Part shown: positions 1 to 6,170 of the stretch, piece by piece
Numbering within the stretch: the stretch's first letter is position 1
Layout: every line of letters begins with the position of its first letter
Sequence record: MG833025.1
DNA: 38,553 nt
From: Escherichia phage T7
Strand: one strand, 5' to 3'
Made by a program: the position numbers and the translations under genes
Notes under the pieces: generated by a model
What the model was told of the DNA's origin: nothing
Databases searched by the model: none
What the model saw: the letters and a program-made list of their open reading frames with translations, nothing else

Positions 1-160
1 TCTCACAGTGTACGGACCTAAAGTTCCCCCATAGGGGGTACCTAAAGCCCAGCCAATCACCTAAAGTCAACCTTCGGTTGACCTTGAGGGTTCCCTAAGG
101 GTTGGGGATGACCCTTGGGTTTGTCTTTGGGTGTTACCTTGAGTGTCTCTCTGTGTCCCT
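1..160. repeat. Left direct terminal repeat, identical to 38394-38553
   Basis: The first 160 nt recur exactly at the right end; T7 has a 160-bp terminal redundancy. Confidence 0.95.
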
Positions 161-174
161 ATCTGTTACAGTCT

Positions 175-345
175 CCTAAAGTATCCTCCTAAAGTCACCT
201 CCTAACGTCCATCCTAAAGCCAACACCTAAAGCCTACACCTAAAGACCCATCAAGTCAACGCCTATCTTAAAGTTTAAACATAAAGACCAGACCTAAAGA
301 CCAGACCTAAAGACACTACATAAAGACCAGACCTAAAGACGCCTT
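175..345. repeat. Array of short CCTAAAG-family repeats next to the left terminal repeat
   Basis: Repeated cctaaag/acctaaag units, including the tandem agaccagacctaaag copies, are read directly; T7 has such repeats at its ends. Confidence 0.7.
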
Positions 346-387
346 GTTGTTAGCCATAAAGTGATAACCTTTAATCATTGTCTTTAT

Positions 388-410
388 TAATACAACTCAC
401 TATAAGGAGA
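388..410 (+). promoter_or_regulatory. T7 RNA polymerase promoter phiOL (left replication origin promoter)
   Basis: taatacaactcactataaggaga is a near-consensus 23-mer with +1 near 405. Confidence 0.85.
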
Positions 411-462
411 GACAACTTAAAGAGACTTAAAAGATTAATTTAAAATTTATCAAAAAGAGTAT

Positions 463-498
463 TGACTTAAAGTCTAACCTATAGGATACTTACAGCCA
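463..498 (+). promoter_or_regulatory. Host sigma70 early promoter A1
   Basis: -35 ttgact at 463-468 and -10 gatact at 485-490, at the known T7 A1 position. Confidence 0.85.
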
Positions 499-588
499 TC
501 GAGAGGGACACGGCGAATAGCCATCCCAATCGACACCGGGGTCAACCGGATAAGTAGACAGCCTGATAAGTCGCACGAAAAACAGGTA

Positions 589-626
589 TTGACAACATGA
601 AGTAACATGCAGTAAGATACAAATCG
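589..626 (+). promoter_or_regulatory. Host sigma70 early promoter A2
   Basis: -35 ttgaca at 589-594 and -10 taagat at 613-618. Confidence 0.85.
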
Positions 627-713
627 CTAGGTAACACTAGCAGCGTCAACCGGGCGCACAGTGCCTTCTAGGTGACTTAAGCGCACCACGGCACATAAGG
701 TGAAACAAAACGG

Positions 714-750
714 TTGACAACATGAAGTAAACACGGTACGATGTACCACA
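714..750 (+). promoter_or_regulatory. Host sigma70 early promoter A3
   Basis: -35 ttgaca at 714-719 and -10 tacgat at 737-742. Confidence 0.85.
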
Positions 751-924
751 TGAAACGACAGTGAGTCACCACACTGAAAGGTGATGCGGTCTAACGAAAC
801 CTGACCTAAGACGCTCTTTAACAATCTGGTAAATAGCTCTTGAGTGCATGACTAGCGGATAACTCAAGGGTATCGCAAGGTGCCCTTTATGATATTCACT
901 AATAACTGCACGAGGTAACACAAG

Positions 925-1278
925 ATGGCTATGTCTAACATGACTTACAACAACGTTTTCGACCACGCTTACGAAATGCTGAAAGAAAACATCCGTTATG
1001 ATGACATCCGTGACACTGATGACCTGCACGATGCTATTCACATGGCTGCCGATAATGCAGTTCCGCACTACTACGCTGACATCTTTAGCGTAATGGCAAG
1101 TGAGGGCATTGACCTTGAGTTCGAAGACTCTGGTCTGATGCCTGACACCAAGGACGTAATCCGCATCCTGCAAGCGCGTATCTATGAGCAATTAACGATT
1201 GACCTCTGGGAAGACGCAGAAGACTTGCTCAATGAATACTTGGAGGAAGTCGAGGAGTACGAGGAGGATGAAGAGTAA
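925..1278 (+). CDS. 0.3: Ocr, DNA-mimic inhibitor of type I restriction-modification
   Basis: 117-aa acidic protein [22 protein letters not shown]... matching T7 gp0.3, first gene after A1-A3. Confidence 0.95.
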
Positions 1279-1433
1279 TGTCTACTACCAACGTGCAATA
1301 CGGTCTGACCGCTCAAACTGTACTTTTCTATAGCGACATGGTGCGCTGTGGCTTTAACTGGTCACTCGCAATGGCACAGCTCAAAGAACTGTACGAAAAC
1401 AACAAGGCAATAGCTTTAGAATCTGCTGAGTGA
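1278..1433 (+). CDS. 0.4: Gene 0.4 small protein (51 aa)
   Basis: The ATG overlaps the 0.3 stop (taATG); [51 protein letters not shown]. It is below the ORF-track size cutoff. Confidence 0.8.
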   Translation: MSTTNVQYGLTAQTVLFYSDMVRCGFNWSLAMAQLKELYENNKAIALESAE

Positions 1434-1490
1434 TAGACTCAAGGTCGCTCCTAGCGAGTGGCCTTTTTGATTATCACTTTACTTATGAGG
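1434..1490 (+). promoter_or_regulatory. Probable RNase III processing site (R0.5-like) with the native gene 0.5 RBS
   Basis: actcaaggtcgctcctagcgagtggcc can form a hairpin like T7 RNase III sites; gaggga lies just before the ATG at 1496. Confidence 0.55.
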
Positions 1491-1495
1491 GAGTA

Positions 1496-2491
1496 ATGAG
1501 CATCGCGGCGACCCTGGAGAACGATCTGGCGCGTCTGGAAAACGAAAACGCTCGTCTCGAAAAAGACATCGCGAACCTGGAACGTGACCTGGCGAAACTG
1601 GAGCGTGAAGAAGCGTACTTCGGAGGTTCAGGTGGTAAGAACACTGGTGAAATCTCTGAGAAAGTCAAGCTGGGCACTAAGGCACTGGCTGGTCAATGGC
1701 TGGCTTACGGTGTTACTCGCAGTGTGACTAAGAGTTCAGTCATGACGCTGGCTTACGGGTCCAAAGAGTTCGGCTTCCGTCAACAAGTGCTGGAAGATAC
1801 CATTCAGCCAGCTATTGATTCCGGCAAGGGTCTGATGTTCACTCAGCCGAATCAGGCTGCTGGATACATGGCTAAGCTGATTTGGGAATCTGTGAGCGTG
1901 ACGGTGGTAGCTGCGGTTGAAGCAATGAACTGGCTTAAGTCTGCTGCTAAGCTGCTGGCTGCTGAGGTCAAAGATAAGAAGACTGGAGAGATTCTTCGCA
2001 AGCGTTGCGCTGTGCATTGGGTAACTCCTGATGGTTTCCCTGTGTGGCAGGAATACAAGAAGCCTATTCAGACGCGCTTGAACCTGATGTTCCTCGGTCA
2101 GTTCCGCTTACAGCCTACCATTAACACCAACAAAGATAGCGAGATTGATGCACACAAACAGGAGTCTGGTATCGCTCCTAACTTTGTACACAGCCAAGAC
2201 GGTAGCCACCTTCGTAAGACTGTAGTGTGGGCACACGAGAAGTACGGAATCGAATCTTTTGCACTGATTCACGACTCCTTCGGTACGATTCCGGCTGACG
2301 CTGCGAACCTGTTCAAAGCAGTGCGCGAAACTATGGTTGACACATATGAGTCTTGTGATGTACTGGCTGATTTCTACGACCAGTTCGCTGACCAGTTGCA
2401 CGAGTCTCAATTGGACAAAATGCCAGCACTTCCGGCTAAAGGTAACTTGAACCTCCGTGACATCTTAGAGTCGGACTTCGCGTTCGCGTAA
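1496..2491 (+). CDS. 1: Split T7 RNA polymerase, C-terminal fragment: Met, SYNZIP18-like coiled coil, GGSGG, Lys, polymerase residues 601-883 with apparent R632S
   Basis: Translation SIAATLENDLARLENENARLEKDIANLERDLAKLEREEAYF-GGSGG-KNTGEISEKV... runs to the polymerase C-terminus ...LRDILESDFAFA. It contains motif C (IHDSF, H811/D812) and the specificity-loop region. Confidence 0.93.
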   Translation: MSIAATLENDLARLENENARLEKDIANLERDLAKLEREEAYFGGSGGKNTGEISEKVKLGTKALAGQWLAYGVTRSVTKSSVMTLAYGSKEFGFRQQVLEDTIQPAIDSGKGLMFTQPNQAAGYMAKLIWESVSVTVVAAVEAMNWLKSAAKLLAAEVKDKKTGEILRKRCAVHWVTPDGFPVWQEYKKPIQTRLNLMFLGQFRLQPTINTNKDSEIDAHKQESGIAPNFVHSQDGSHLRKTVVWAHEKYGIESFALIHDSFGTIPADAANLFKAVRETMVDTYESCDVLADFYDQFADQLHESQLDKMPALPAKGNLNLRDILESDFAFA

Positions 2492-2510
2492 TAAAGAGGA
2501 GAAATACTAG
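2491..2510 (+). promoter_or_regulatory. Synthetic intercistronic RBS (aaagaggagaaa plus tactag spacer) after a double stop
   Basis: taataaagaggagaaatactagATG matches a standard synthetic-biology RBS part with an assembly scar; this is not native T7 sequence. Confidence 0.8.
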
Positions 2511-4463
2511 ATGAACACGATTAACATCGCTAAGAACGACTTCTCTGACATCGAACTGGCTGCTATCCCGTTCAACACTCTGGCTGACCATTACGGTGAG
2601 CGTTTAGCTCGCGAACAGTTGGCCCTTGAGCATGAGTCTTACGAGATGGGTGAAGCACGCTTCCGCAAGATGTTTGAGCGTCAACTTAAAGCTGGTGAGG
2701 TTGCGGATAACGCTGCCGCCAAGCCTCTCATCACTACCCTACTCCCTAAGATGATTGCACGCATCAACGACTGGTTTGAGGAAGTGAAAGCTAAGCGCGG
2801 CAAGCGCCCGACAGCCTTCCAGTTCCTGCAAGAAATCAAGCCGGAAGCCGTAGCGTACATCACCATTAAGACCACTCTGGCTTGCCTAACCAGTGCTGAC
2901 AATACAACCGTTCAGGCTGTAGCAAGCGCAATCGGTCGGGCCATTGAGGACGAGGCTCGCTTCGGTCGTATCCGTGACCTTGAAGCTAAGCACTTCAAGA
3001 AAAACGTTGAGGAACAACTCAACAAGCGCGTAGGGCACGTCTACAAGAAAGCATTTATGCAAGTTGTCGAGGCTGACATGCTCTCTAAGGGTCTACTCGG
3101 TGGCGAGGCGTGGTCTTCGTGGCATAAGGAAGACTCTATTCATGTAGGAGTACGCTGCATCGAGATGCTCATTGAGTCAACCGGAATGGTTAGCTTACAC
3201 CGCCAAAATGCTGGCGTAGTAGGTCAAGACTCTGAGACTATCGAACTCGCACCTGAATACGCTGAGGCTATCGCAACCCGTGCAGGTGCGCTGGCTGGCA
3301 TCTCTCCGATGTTCCAACCTTGCGTAGTTCCTCCTAAGCCGTGGACTGGCATTACTGGTGGTGGCTATTGGGCTAACGGTCGTCGTCCTCTGGCGCTGGT
3401 GCGTACTCACAGTAAGAAAGCACTGATGCGCTACGAAGACGTTTACATGCCTGAGGTGTACAAAGCGATTAACATTGCGCAAAACACCGCATGGAAAATC
3501 AACAAGAAAGTCCTAGCGGTCGCCAACGTAATCACCAAGTGGAAGCATTGTCCGGTCGAGGACATCCCTGCGATTGAGCGTGAAGAACTCCCGATGAAAC
3601 CGGAAGACATCGACATGAATCCTGAGGCTCTCACCGCGTGGAAACGTGCTGCCGCTGCTGTGTACCGCAAGGACAAGGCTCGCAAGTCTCGCCGTATCAG
3701 CCTTGAGTTCATGCTTGAGCAAGCCAATAAGTTTGCTAACCATAAGGCCATCTGGTTCCCTTACAACATGGACTGGCGCGGTCGTGTTTACGCTGTGTCA
3801 ATGTTCAACCCGCAAGGTAACGATATGACCAAAGGACTGCTTACGCTGGCGAAAGGTAAACCAATCGGTAAGGAAGGTTACTACTGGCTGAAAATCCACG
3901 GTGCAAACTGTGCGGGTGTCGACAAGGTTCCGTTCCCTGAGCGCATCAAGTTCATTGAGGAAAACCACGAGAACATCATGGCTTGCGCTAAGTCTCCACT
4001 GGAGAACACTTGGTGGGCTGAGCAAGATTCTCCGTTCTGCTTCCTTGCGTTCTGCTTTGAGTACGCTGGGGTACAGCACCACGGCCTGAGCTATAACTGC
4101 TCCCTTCCGCTGGCGTTTGACGGGTCTTGCTCTGGCATCCAGCACTTCTCCGCGATGCTCCGAGATGAGGTAGGTGGTCGCGCGGTTAACTTGCTTCCTA
4201 GTGAAACCGTTCAGGACATCTACGGGATTGTTGCTAAGAAAGTCAACGAGATTCTACAAGCAGACGCAATCAATGGGACCGATAACGAAGTAGTTACCGT
4301 GACCGATGAGAACGGAGGTTCAGGTGGTGGATCCAACGAAAAAGAAGAACTGAAATCCAAAAAAGCGGAACTGCGCAACCGTATCGAACAGCTGAAACAG
4401 AAACGTGAACAACTGAAGCAGAAAATCGCGAACCTGCGTAAAGAAATCGAAGCTTACAAATAA
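2511..4463 (+). CDS. 1: Split T7 RNA polymerase, N-terminal fragment: residues 1-601, GGSGGGS, SYNZIP17-like coiled coil
   Basis: MNTINIAKNDFSDIELAAIPFNTLADHYGERLAREQ... runs to ...NEVVTVTDEN, then GGSGGGS and NEKEELKSKKAELRNRIEQLKQKREQLKQKIANLRKEIEAYK. It contains motif A (D537). Confidence 0.93.
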   Translation: MNTINIAKNDFSDIELAAIPFNTLADHYGERLAREQLALEHESYEMGEARFRKMFERQLKAGEVADNAAAKPLITTLLPKMIARINDWFEEVKAKRGKRPTAFQFLQEIKPEAVAYITIKTTLACLTSADNTTVQAVASAIGRAIEDEARFGRIRDLEAKHFKKNVEEQLNKRVGHVYKKAFMQVVEADMLSKGLLGGEAWSSWHKEDSIHVGVRCIEMLIESTGMVSLHRQNAGVVGQDSETIELAPEYAEAIATRAGALAGISPMFQPCVVPPKPWTGITGGGYWANGRRPLALVRTHSKKALMRYEDVYMPEVYKAINIAQNTAWKINKKVLAVANVITKWKHCPVEDIPAIEREELPMKPEDIDMNPEALTAWKRAAAAVYRKDKARKSRRISLEFMLEQANKFANHKAIWFPYNMDWRGRVYAVSMFNPQGNDMTKGLLTLAKGKPIGKEGYYWLKIHGANCAGVDKVPFPERIKFIEENHENIMACAKSPLENTWWAEQDSPFCFLAFCFEYAGVQHHGLSYNCSLPLAFDGSCSGIQHFSAMLRDEVGGRAVNLLPSETVQDIYGIVAKKVNEILQADAINGTDNEVVTVTDENGGSGGGSNEKEELKSKKAELRNRIEQLKQKREQLKQKIANLRKEIEAYK

Positions 4464-4520
4464 GAGGGACAAACTCAAGGTCATTCGCAAGAGTGGCCTT
4501 TATGATTGACCTTCTTCCGG
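4464..4520 (+). promoter_or_regulatory. RNase III processing site R1.1 region
   Basis: gagggacaaactcaaggtcattcgcaagagtggcctttatgattgacc has a hairpin-capable actcaagg...gagtggcc motif like other T7 RNase III sites. Confidence 0.55.
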
Positions 4521-4521
4521 T

Positions 4522-4544
4522 TAATACGACTCACTATAGGAGAA
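4522..4544 (+). promoter_or_regulatory. T7 promoter phi1.1B
   Basis: taatacgactcactataggagaa, +1 near 4539. Confidence 0.9.
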
Positions 4545-4622
4545 CCTTAAGGTTTAACTTTAAGACCCTTAAGTGTTAATTAGAGATTTAAATTAAAGAA
4601 TTACTAAGAGAGGACTTTAAGT
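4545..4622. other. AT-rich region of the primary origin of replication
   Basis: AT-rich tract ttaaggtttaactttaag...agatttaaattaaagaattac just downstream of phi1.1B, where the T7 primary origin lies. Confidence 0.6.
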
Positions 4623-4751
4623 ATGCGTAACTTCGAAAAGATGACCAAACGTTCTAACCGTAATGCTCGTGACTTCGAGGCAACCAAAGGTCGCAAGTTG
4701 AATAAGACTAAGCGTGACCGCTCTCACAAGCGTAGCTGGGAGGGTCAGTAA
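4623..4751 (+). CDS. 1.1: Gene 1.1 small basic protein (42 aa)
   Basis: MRNFEKMTKRSNRNARDFEATKGRKLNKTKRDRSHKRSWEGQ with RBS gagagga upstream. Confidence 0.8.
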   Translation: MRNFEKMTKRSNRNARDFEATKGRKLNKTKRDRSHKRSWEGQ

Positions 4752-4752
4752 G

Positions 4753-5010
4753 ATGGGACGTTTATATAGTGGTAATCTGGCAGCATTCAAGGCAGCAACA
4801 AACAAGCTGTTCCAGTTAGACTTAGCGGTCATTTATGATGACTGGTATGATGCCTATACAAGAAAAGATTGCATACGGTTACGTATTGAGGACAGGAGTG
4901 GAAACCTGATTGATACTAGCACCTTCTACCACCACGACGAGGACGTTCTGTTCAATATGTGTACTGATTGGTTGAACCATATGTATGACCAGTTGAAGGA
5001 CTGGAAGTAA
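4753..5010 (+). CDS. 1.2: Gene 1.2, inhibitor of host dGTPase
   Basis: MGRLYSGNLAAFKAATNKLFQLDLAVIYDDWYDAY... 85 aa. Confidence 0.85.
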   Translation: MGRLYSGNLAAFKAATNKLFQLDLAVIYDDWYDAYTRKDCIRLRIEDRSGNLIDTSTFYHHDEDVLFNMCTDWLNHMYDQLKDWK

Positions 5011-5030
5011 TACGACTCAGTATAGGGACA
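5008..5030 (+). promoter_or_regulatory. T7 promoter phi1.3
   Basis: taatacgactcagtatagggaca, +1 near 5025. Confidence 0.9.
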
Positions 5031-5090
5031 ATGCTTAAGGTCGCTCTCTAGGAGTGGCCTTAGTCATTTAACCAATAGGAGATAAACATT

Positions 5091-6170
5091 ATGATGAACA
5101 TTAAGACTAACCCGTTTAAAGCCGTGTCTTTCGTAGAGTCTGCCATTAAGAAGGCTCTGGATAACGCTGGGTATCTTATCGCTGAAATCAAGTACGATGG
5201 TGTACGCGGGAACATCTGCGTAGACAATACTGCTAACAGTTACTGGCTCTCTCGTGTATCTAAAACGATTCCGGCACTGGAGCACTTAAACGGGTTTGAT
5301 GTTCGCTGGAAGCGTCTACTGAACGATGACCGTTGCTTCTACAAAGATGGCTTTATGCTTGATGGGGAACTCATGGTCAAGGGCGTAGACTTTAACACAG
5401 GGTCCGGCCTACTGCGTACCAAATGGACTGACACGAAGAACCAAGAGTTCCATGAAGAGTTATTCGTTGAACCAATCCGTAAGAAAGATAAAGTTCCCTT
5501 TAAGCTGCACACTGGACACCTTCACATAAAACTGTACGCTATCCTCCCGCTGCACATCGTGGAGTCTGGAGAAGACTGTGATGTCATGACGTTGCTCATG
5601 CAGGAACACGTTAAGAACATGCTGCCTCTGCTACAGGAATACTTCCCTGAAATCGAATGGCAAGCGGCTGAATCTTACGAGGTCTACGATATGGTAGAAC
5701 TACAGCAACTGTACGAGCAGAAGCGAGCAGAAGGCCATGAGGGTCTCATTGTGAAAGACCCGATGTGTATCTATAAGCGCGGTAAGAAATCTGGCTGGTG
5801 GAAAATGAAACCTGAGAACGAAGCTGACGGTATCATTCAGGGTCTGGTATGGGGTACAAAAGGTCTGGCTAATGAAGGTAAAGTGATTGGTTTTGAGGTG
5901 CTTCTTGAGAGTGGTCGTTTAGTTAACGCCACGAATATCTCTCGCGCCTTAATGGATGAGTTCACTGAGACAGTAAAAGAGGCCACCCTAAGTCAATGGG
6001 GATTCTTTAGCCCATACGGTATTGGCGACAACGATGCTTGTACTATTAACCCTTACGATGGCTGGGCGTGTCAAATTAGCTACATGGAGGAAACACCTGA
6101 TGGCTCTTTGCGGCACCCATCGTTCGTAATGTTCCGTGGCACCGAGGACAACCCTCAAGAGAAAATGTAA
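5091..6170 (+). CDS. 1.3: ATP-dependent DNA ligase
   Basis: 359 aa with the KYDGVRG adenylation motif (lysine nucleotidyltransferase motif I). Confidence 0.95.
   Translation: MMNIKTNPFKAVSFVESAIKKALDNAGYLIAEIKYDGVRGNICVDNTANSYWLSRVSKTIPALEHLNGFDVRWKRLLNDDRCFYKDGFMLDGELMVKGVDFNTGSGLLRTKWTDTKNQEFHEELFVEPIRKKDKVPFKLHTGHLHIKLYAILPLHIVESGEDCDVMTLLMQEHVKNMLPLLQEYFPEIEWQAAESYEVYDMVELQQLYEQKRAEGHEGLIVKDPMCIYKRGKKSGWWKMKPENEADGIIQGLVWGTKGLANEGKVIGFEVLLESGRLVNATNISRALMDEFTETVKEATLSQWGFFSPYGIGDNDACTINPYDGWACQISYMEETPDGSLRHPSFVMFRGTEDNPQEKM

Follow-up and report, generated by a model that had tools for sequence, protein, structure and literature searches.

A two-cistron split RNA polymerase cassette in place of genes 0.5 to 1 in an engineered T7 genome

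Sequence record MG833025.1, labelled Escherichia phage T7, was analyzed over its full length of 38,553 bp (hereafter, the window); it comprises a whole T7-type genome with a 160-bp terminal repeat at both ends, in whose early region the phage RNA polymerase (RNAP) is encoded as two separate cistrons. The T7 genome NC_001604 served as the reference, and comparison with it by BLAST divides the window into four blocks, either collinear or rearranged. Window 1-1498 corresponds to T7 1-1498 with 1 mismatch, window 1638-2491 to T7 4969-5822 (the 3′ third of gene 1), window 2506-4313 to T7 3166-4973 (the 5′ two thirds of gene 1), and window 4463-38553 to T7 5847-39937, a block of 34,091 nucleotides (nt) with 0 mismatches. 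T7 nt 1499-5846 have thus been exchanged for a cassette of 2,964 bp at window 1499-4462. Genes 0.5, 0.6A/B, and 0.7 and the native single-chain gene 1 have gone with the replaced segment, as have the minor Escherichia coli promoters B and C, and the same comparison finds no contiguous gene 1 in the window. A first-pass annotation, made from the letters of the sequence, had proposed that an engineered two-cistron split T7 RNAP cassette takes the place of genes 0.5 to 1 at 1434-4520; the alignment bears this out as one block at 1499-4462, the earlier range having also taken in the native intergenic hairpin regions on both flanks. The genes, promoters, and other features located below all lie on the + strand.

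Cistron 1 (1496-2491) encodes a "sigma fragment" of 331 amino acids (aa) with the layout M-SYNZIP18-GGSGG-K-RNAP(601-883, R632S). The initial Met occupies 1496-1498, the SYNZIP18 peptide (SIAATLENDLARLENENARLEKDIANLERDLAKLEREEAYF) 1499-1621, the GGSGG linker 1622-1636, a Lys codon 1637-1639, and T7 RNAP residues 601-883 1640-2488, followed by a TAA stop at 2489-2491. The cistron uses the native ATG of gene 0.5 (1496) and the Shine-Dalgarno sequence belonging to it. An open reading frame (ORF) of 353 aa opening with GTG at 1430 was considered as an alternative form of cistron 1 and was rejected as a mechanical over-extension. The start was placed at ATG 1496 because this is the native gene 0.5 start, it has a Shine-Dalgarno sequence, it agrees with published codon numbering in which V133 is nt 1892-1894 (Garry, Ellington, Molineux and Bull, 2018, Virus Evol 4:vey017; PMC6009699), and it gives a 331-aa product that matches exactly the NCBI protein AVH85520.1, "RNA polymerase [Escherichia phage T7]." The zipper peptide is letter-for-letter the "Syn18" sequence of PMC8477956, and a PDB search also matches the N-terminal peptide to SYNZIP6 (3HE4, E 5e-8). 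The first 79 residues of the product (Met-SYNZIP18-GGSGG-Lys plus RNAP 601-631) are identical to those of "SZ18-T3_sigma_factor" (APA32051.1, 331 aa), from which the whole product differs only by R632S and in the specificity loop. The R632S codon arises from A at window nt 1733, where T7 has C (CGT to AGT), and a silent C>G change at 2287 (GGTACC>GGTACG) removes a KpnI site.

The two cistrons are separated by an intercistronic spacer of 19 nt (2492-2510; TAAAGAGGAGAAATACTAG), which contains a second stop codon, a strong consensus ribosome binding site (RBS; AAAGAGGAGAAA), and a TACTAG scar; the RBS and TACTAG are presumably BioBrick B0034 and its scar. Cistron 2 (2511-4463) encodes the "core (alpha-beta) fragment" of 650 aa, RNAP(1-601)-GGSGGGS-SYNZIP17, in which RNAP residues 1-601 lie at 2511-4313, the GGSGGGS linker at 4314-4334, and the SYNZIP17 peptide (NEKEELKSKKAELRNRIEQLKQKREQLKQKIANLRKEIEAYK) at 4335-4460, with a TAA stop after it. 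The last two codons of the linker form a BamHI site (4329-4334), and a silent T>C change at 3923 (GTCGAT>GTCGAC) creates a SalI site. The silent changes at 2287 and 3923 look like provenance marks of a plasmid-borne T7* RNAP allele rather than products of phage evolution. The cistron 2 product matches exactly AVH85521.1, "RNA polymerase [Escherichia phage T7]," and is also identical to APA32048.1, "Core polymerase-SZ17 [Synthetic plasmid pCore]." Its zipper peptide is similar to bZIPs and to designed coiled coils of the antiparallel type. The SYNZIP17 peptide string was not found in a literature search or in the supplements of Segall-Shapiro et al. (2014; PMC4299498); the peptide is identified as SZ17 because of the NCBI source name, "Core polymerase-SZ17," and the design described in the paper.

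When the two ORF products are set against T7 RNA polymerase, residues 1-601 are found in cistron 2 and residues 601-883 in cistron 1, which together give the complete 1-883, with N601 present in both fragments. The gene order is reversed, in that the C-terminal (sigma) fragment is encoded 5′ of the core fragment. Pfam places PF14700 (RPOL_N) and PF00940 profile positions 1-145 in cistron 2 and PF00940 positions 147-376 in cistron 1; the PF00940 profile is tiled over both ORFs, and the break therefore lies inside the catalytic domain. A PDB search returned T7 RNAP chains (1CEZ, 1QLN, and others) with E = 0 for the core fragment and E ~1e-189 for the sigma fragment. Residues D537, K631, Y639, H811, and D812 and the loop 739-770 have known catalytic or specificity roles in T7 RNAP. 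D537 lies on the core fragment, whereas the sigma fragment carries K631, Y639, H811, D812, and the specificity loop (739-770); the active site is made up from both fragments, and neither works alone. Both zipper peptides, each roughly 41 aa long, have Leu/Ile at heptad positions a and d in a clean pattern that includes a buried Asn, and their net charges are opposite, -5 and +6. The first-pass annotation had described a designed coiled coil fused to each fragment by way of a Gly/Ser linker, and these coiled coils can now be named as SYNZIP18 and SYNZIP17.

The catalytic and N-terminal domains of a single-subunit RNAP, with the catalytic residues, are therefore all present; what is absent is the single polypeptide, the enzyme being encoded in two ORFs with two stop codons between them and in permuted order. 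This two-ORF encoding is an engineered departure from a T7-like RNAP. A natural gene fission of such a polymerase would also yield two ORFs, and nothing beyond their existence speaks for it, whereas the zippers are the designed peptides SYNZIP17 and SYNZIP18, the second cistron is preceded by a synthetic RBS with a cloning scar, the linker carries a BamHI site, R632S is an engineered low-toxicity allele (PMC4299498), and the remainder of the genome matches the 1983 reference base for base. Natural fission is accordingly regarded as extremely improbable. A query containing the zippers had no covering match in 50,697 phage records, among which the best matches were to the flanking native T7 sequence and covered 24% of the query. 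The sequence cluster of the C-terminal fragment includes a 234-aa "RNA polymerase" from the 37,714-bp record of Yersinia phage YpP-Y, a natural T7-like phage; the short protein probably reflects a gene 1 annotation that is frameshifted or truncated, not a natural split.

The arrangement agrees with a construct that has been published. Garry et al. (2018; PMC6009699) deposited the engineered T7 strain JB 13-78 as MG833025; to obtain it, a plasmid-borne cassette was recombined into T7-delta-1, in which genes 0.5 to 1 are deleted into phi1.1A, and the aim was to find out whether fragmenting a protein can serve as a means of attenuation. The published deletion extent (0.5, 0.6A, 0.6B, 0.7, and 1, into phi1.1A) is found in the window, as is the published design, in which sigma precedes alpha-beta, the 19-nt spacer brings an additional stop, leucine zippers are used, and the parts are those of Segall-Shapiro et al. 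According to the authors, the sigma-first order was deliberate, in that no simple deletion can rebuild a single-chain gene 1 (PMC6009699). The parts derive from T7* RNAP, which carries R632S and was cut in two at residue 601; the 601-aa "core fragment" bears SynZIP17, the "sigma fragment" bears SynZIP18, and the two zippers pair in antiparallel orientation. The split enzyme retains about one quarter of full-length activity and shows none without a fragment (PMC4299498). T7-delta-1 requires RNAP in trans and the cassette recombinants grow uncomplemented (PMC6009699), which upholds the earlier proposal that phage development depends on assembly of the two fragments. The window is almost certainly the genome of JB 13-78, because the block structure, the junctions, the zipper, linker, and R632S matches, the exact proteins, the fit of the published mutation-table positions upstream of and within the cassette, and the published design all agree with it, and the mechanism proposed below is the most likely one. 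The first-pass annotation was right in its outline, but it had missed the sigma-first order, R632S, the reuse of the gene 0.5 RBS and ATG, the phi1.1A deletion, and the prior publication; the split-RNAP construct, its purpose, and its evolutionary behavior were already published in 2018.

The junctions of the cassette are base-precise, lying at the gene 0.5 ATG on the left and at the +1 of phi1.1A on the right, where the sequence reads TACAAATAA joined to GAGGGACAAAC and native sequence restarts at phi1.1A +1. The promoter phi1.1A (T7 5831-5853) has in this way been stripped of its positions -17 to -1, and a consensus scan detects it in the reference and not in the window. No vector backbone accompanies the cassette. 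These features bear on the possibility that the window is an assembly chimera, or that T7 reads were contaminated by a split-RNAP expression plasmid. Parts of the cassette do occur on plasmids (pCore and the pTac-series), as such an explanation would require, but the junctions are not only precise but purposeful, the genome is complete with its terminal repeats, and the sigma-first order and the 19-nt spacer are unlike the source plasmids and match the published recombination design; a chimeric origin is thus very improbable. The cassette had no match in 72,556 plasmid records (PLSDB), among which the source plasmids are not included.

Table 1 of Garry et al. (PMC6009699) lists mutations that appeared when the same lineage was passaged, and its positions 1074, 1486, 1893, 1929, and 4297 match the bases, codons, and reading frames of the window exactly. 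T1486 is intergenic, with a published change of T>G that would convert TTATGAGG to TTAGGAGG, a better Shine-Dalgarno sequence as we infer it. T1893 is the second base of codon 133 (V; RNAP V685), A1929 lies in codon 145 (N; N697), and C4297 lies in the codon for T596. The site of the TAC insertion, 1074, falls in the YY of gene 0.3, and the deletion 1180-1534 would take exactly 99 nt of gene 0.3 and stay in frame with the zipper. Since this lineage was passaged and sequenced (PMC6009699), the window could in principle represent a descendant evolved for 26 h or 38 h. It carries, however, the ancestral bases T1486, T1893 (V133), A1929 (N145), and C4297 (T596), as well as the ancestral C, G, G, and C in genes 6.7, 10B, 17, and 19 when these sites are read 38 nt further downstream; it has neither the TAC insertion at 1074 nor the 1180-1534 deletion, and the 34 kb downstream are 100% identical to the reference T7. 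An evolved descendant is as improbable as a chimeric assembly, and an evolved endpoint genome was rejected, because all listed sites are ancestral and point to the starting construct.

The early promoters of E. coli RNAP, A1, A2, and A3 (462-750), have starts at 498, 626, and 750 by transfer of the NC_001604 annotation over the collinear segment 1-1498, and a sigma-70 scan places them at 462-490, 589-618, and 714-742. The cassette lies in the early region, 3′ of A1, A2, and A3 and 5′ of TE, and is therefore transcribed by the host RNAP. On its left, the native 0.4/0.5 intergenic region (1436-1495) contains a hairpin with its stem at 1441-1465 and the gene 0.5 Shine-Dalgarno sequence GAGG(GAG) at 1488-1494; on its right, native T7 5848-5904 (4464-4520) contains the transcribed stub of phi1.1A (+1 onward) and a second hairpin. 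The hairpins at 1441-1465 and within 4464-4520 are stable predicted folds, with z-scores of -2.5 and -3.6, and we take them to be the RNase III sites R0.5 and R1.1. The R0.5 RNase III site was reportedly described by Dunn and Studier in 1983.

Most likely, host RNAP, starting from A1, A2, and A3, transcribes the early region including the cassette, and cuts by RNase III at R0.5 and R1.1 would leave a dicistronic sigma-core messenger RNA (mRNA). SZ18-sigma would then be translated from the gene 0.5 RBS and core-SZ17 from the synthetic RBS, and translation of the two at neighboring positions would favor fast zipper-mediated assembly, as the authors suggest (PMC6009699). The antiparallel SYNZIP17:SYNZIP18 heterodimer would join the break ends at residue 601 to give a working polymerase, which would serve the 16 remaining T7 promoters and thereby all class II and class III genes. 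The rebuilt enzyme would also take on what gene 1 does outside transcription, in genome entry, replication, and packaging.

Several points weigh against the interpretation of the window as JB 13-78 operating in this manner. The link to MG833025 rests on the paper and on exact protein identity, and we infer both that RNase III processes the cassette mRNA and how the two cistrons compare in translation. The Table 1 positions 17498, 22666, 33991, and 36465 agree with their stated codons and bases only when moved by +38 nt, that is, to window positions 17536, 22704, 34029, and 36503 (genes 6.7, 10B, 17, and 19). In addition, one substitution in the window, A1467T, goes unmentioned by Garry et al. 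(PMC6009699) and is the sole element that the publication leaves unaccounted for. The window resembles the published JB 13-78 in deletion extent, sigma-first order, the spacer with its extra stop, zippers, in-cassette mutation coordinates, and proteins, and the paper differs from it in that its downstream coordinates are 38 nt lower; most likely this offset is internal to the paper, perhaps reflecting a different mapping reference.

A1467T is the sole mismatch to T7 in window 1-1498: window nt 1467 is T, and it is A in every T7 record searched in the phage collection. None of the phage records searched matches window 1420-1498 at 100%. The substitution lies two bases 3′ of the R0.5 hairpin stem and directly 5′ of cistron 1, and it destroys ATG 1466-1468, the start of a 9-codon mini-ORF that ends at a TAA overlapping the gene 0.5 start. 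Prediction shows no effect on the R0.5 fold, the minimum free energy structure and its energy being the same, and a structural explanation of A1467T is therefore unsupported. It is tempting to speculate that A1467T is an early compensatory change, acquired while this very unfit recombinant formed plaques, that tunes expression of the sigma fragment via RNase III processing or removal of the upstream ATG, but this is considered unlikely. More likely, A1467T is a neutral mutation derived from the polymerase chain reaction or from the lineage, carried by the parent, T7-delta-1, or by the flank of the plasmid.

Repeats are found within and around the cassette. The sequences coding for the two linkers make a perfect 16-nt direct repeat (1621-1636 and 4313-4328), and near-repeats of 17-19 nt shared by the R0.5 and R1.1 hairpin sequences (1428-1472 and 4464-4507) bracket the whole cassette. 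Recombination across either the linker or the hairpin repeat pair would lose the polymerase and not regain it, which is consistent with a design that permits no simple reversion.

Splitting of T7 RNAP into polypeptides that reassemble is familiar from elsewhere. The natural enzyme undergoes a proteolytic nick near residues 172-180; a T7 RNAP split at 179/180 is said to have been made by Shis and Bennett in 2013, and biosensors based on the 179/180 split were reportedly developed by Pu, Zinkus-Boltz and Dickinson in 2017. The 179/180 split and the nick resemble the system in the window in that two polypeptides reassemble into an active RNAP of single-subunit type; they differ from it in lying in the N-terminal domain, whereas the break in the window is at 601, inside the palm/fingers Pfam domain. 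To our knowledge, neither of these other split forms is encoded in a phage genome. The system of Segall-Shapiro et al. (PMC4299498) is much closer and shares with the window the split at 601, the duplicated N601, the added Lys, R632S, the placement of SYNZIP17 and SYNZIP18, and the linkers, and its core protein ("Core polymerase-SZ17 [pCore]") is identical to the cistron 2 product. By contrast, its fragments are carried on plasmids and expressed from PTac or constitutive promoters to drive reporters, whereas in the window they form one operon of reversed order in a phage genome, expressed from early promoters of the host RNAP, and viability depends on them. Compared with wild-type gene 1 (NP_041960, P00573), no residue of 1-883 is missing, R632S is the sole substitution, and the catalytic and specificity residues are unaltered; the enzyme of the window is nonetheless not a single chain, its DNA order is permuted, and zippers and linkers have been added, and relative to wild-type T7, genes 0.5 to 0.7 and phi1.1A are absent.

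The published behavior of the construct remains of interest. Fitness fell from about 35 doublings/h in the wild type to about 15 in the split-RNAP phage and reached about 37 after about 38 h of adaptation, with no re-fusion of the fragments (PMC6009699). An essential viral enzyme can thus be split so that the virus is attenuated by about a million-fold per hour, and fitness nevertheless rebounds via a few point mutations without re-fusion; the credit for this result on split-enzyme attenuation and rebound belongs to the original authors (Garry et al., 2018). For genome scans, the window offers a lesson in triage, in that the label "Escherichia phage T7" here belongs to a deposited synthetic phage whose unusual architecture is of human design and not biology.

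Outside the cassette, genes 0.3 (925-1278) and 0.4 (1278-1433) are native and unchanged. The T7 promoter phi1.1B (4522-4544) is kept and is the nearest T7-RNAP promoter 3′ of the cassette; it is followed by the native genes 1.1 (4623-4751), 1.2 (4753-5010), and 1.3 (ligase; 5091-6170), and the T7 genome 3′ of gene 1.3 is identical to the reference. In the public databases, the 90%-identity cluster of T7 RNAP and the core fragment lists entries of 278 and 287 aa named "mRNA capping enzyme small subunit [Monkeypox virus]," together with numerous short entries named "partial DNA-directed RNA polymerase" that come from unrelated bacteria. With these Monkeypox virus-labelled and bacterial entries, public assemblies appear to be contaminated by T7 RNAP or vector sequence, or to be mislabelled.

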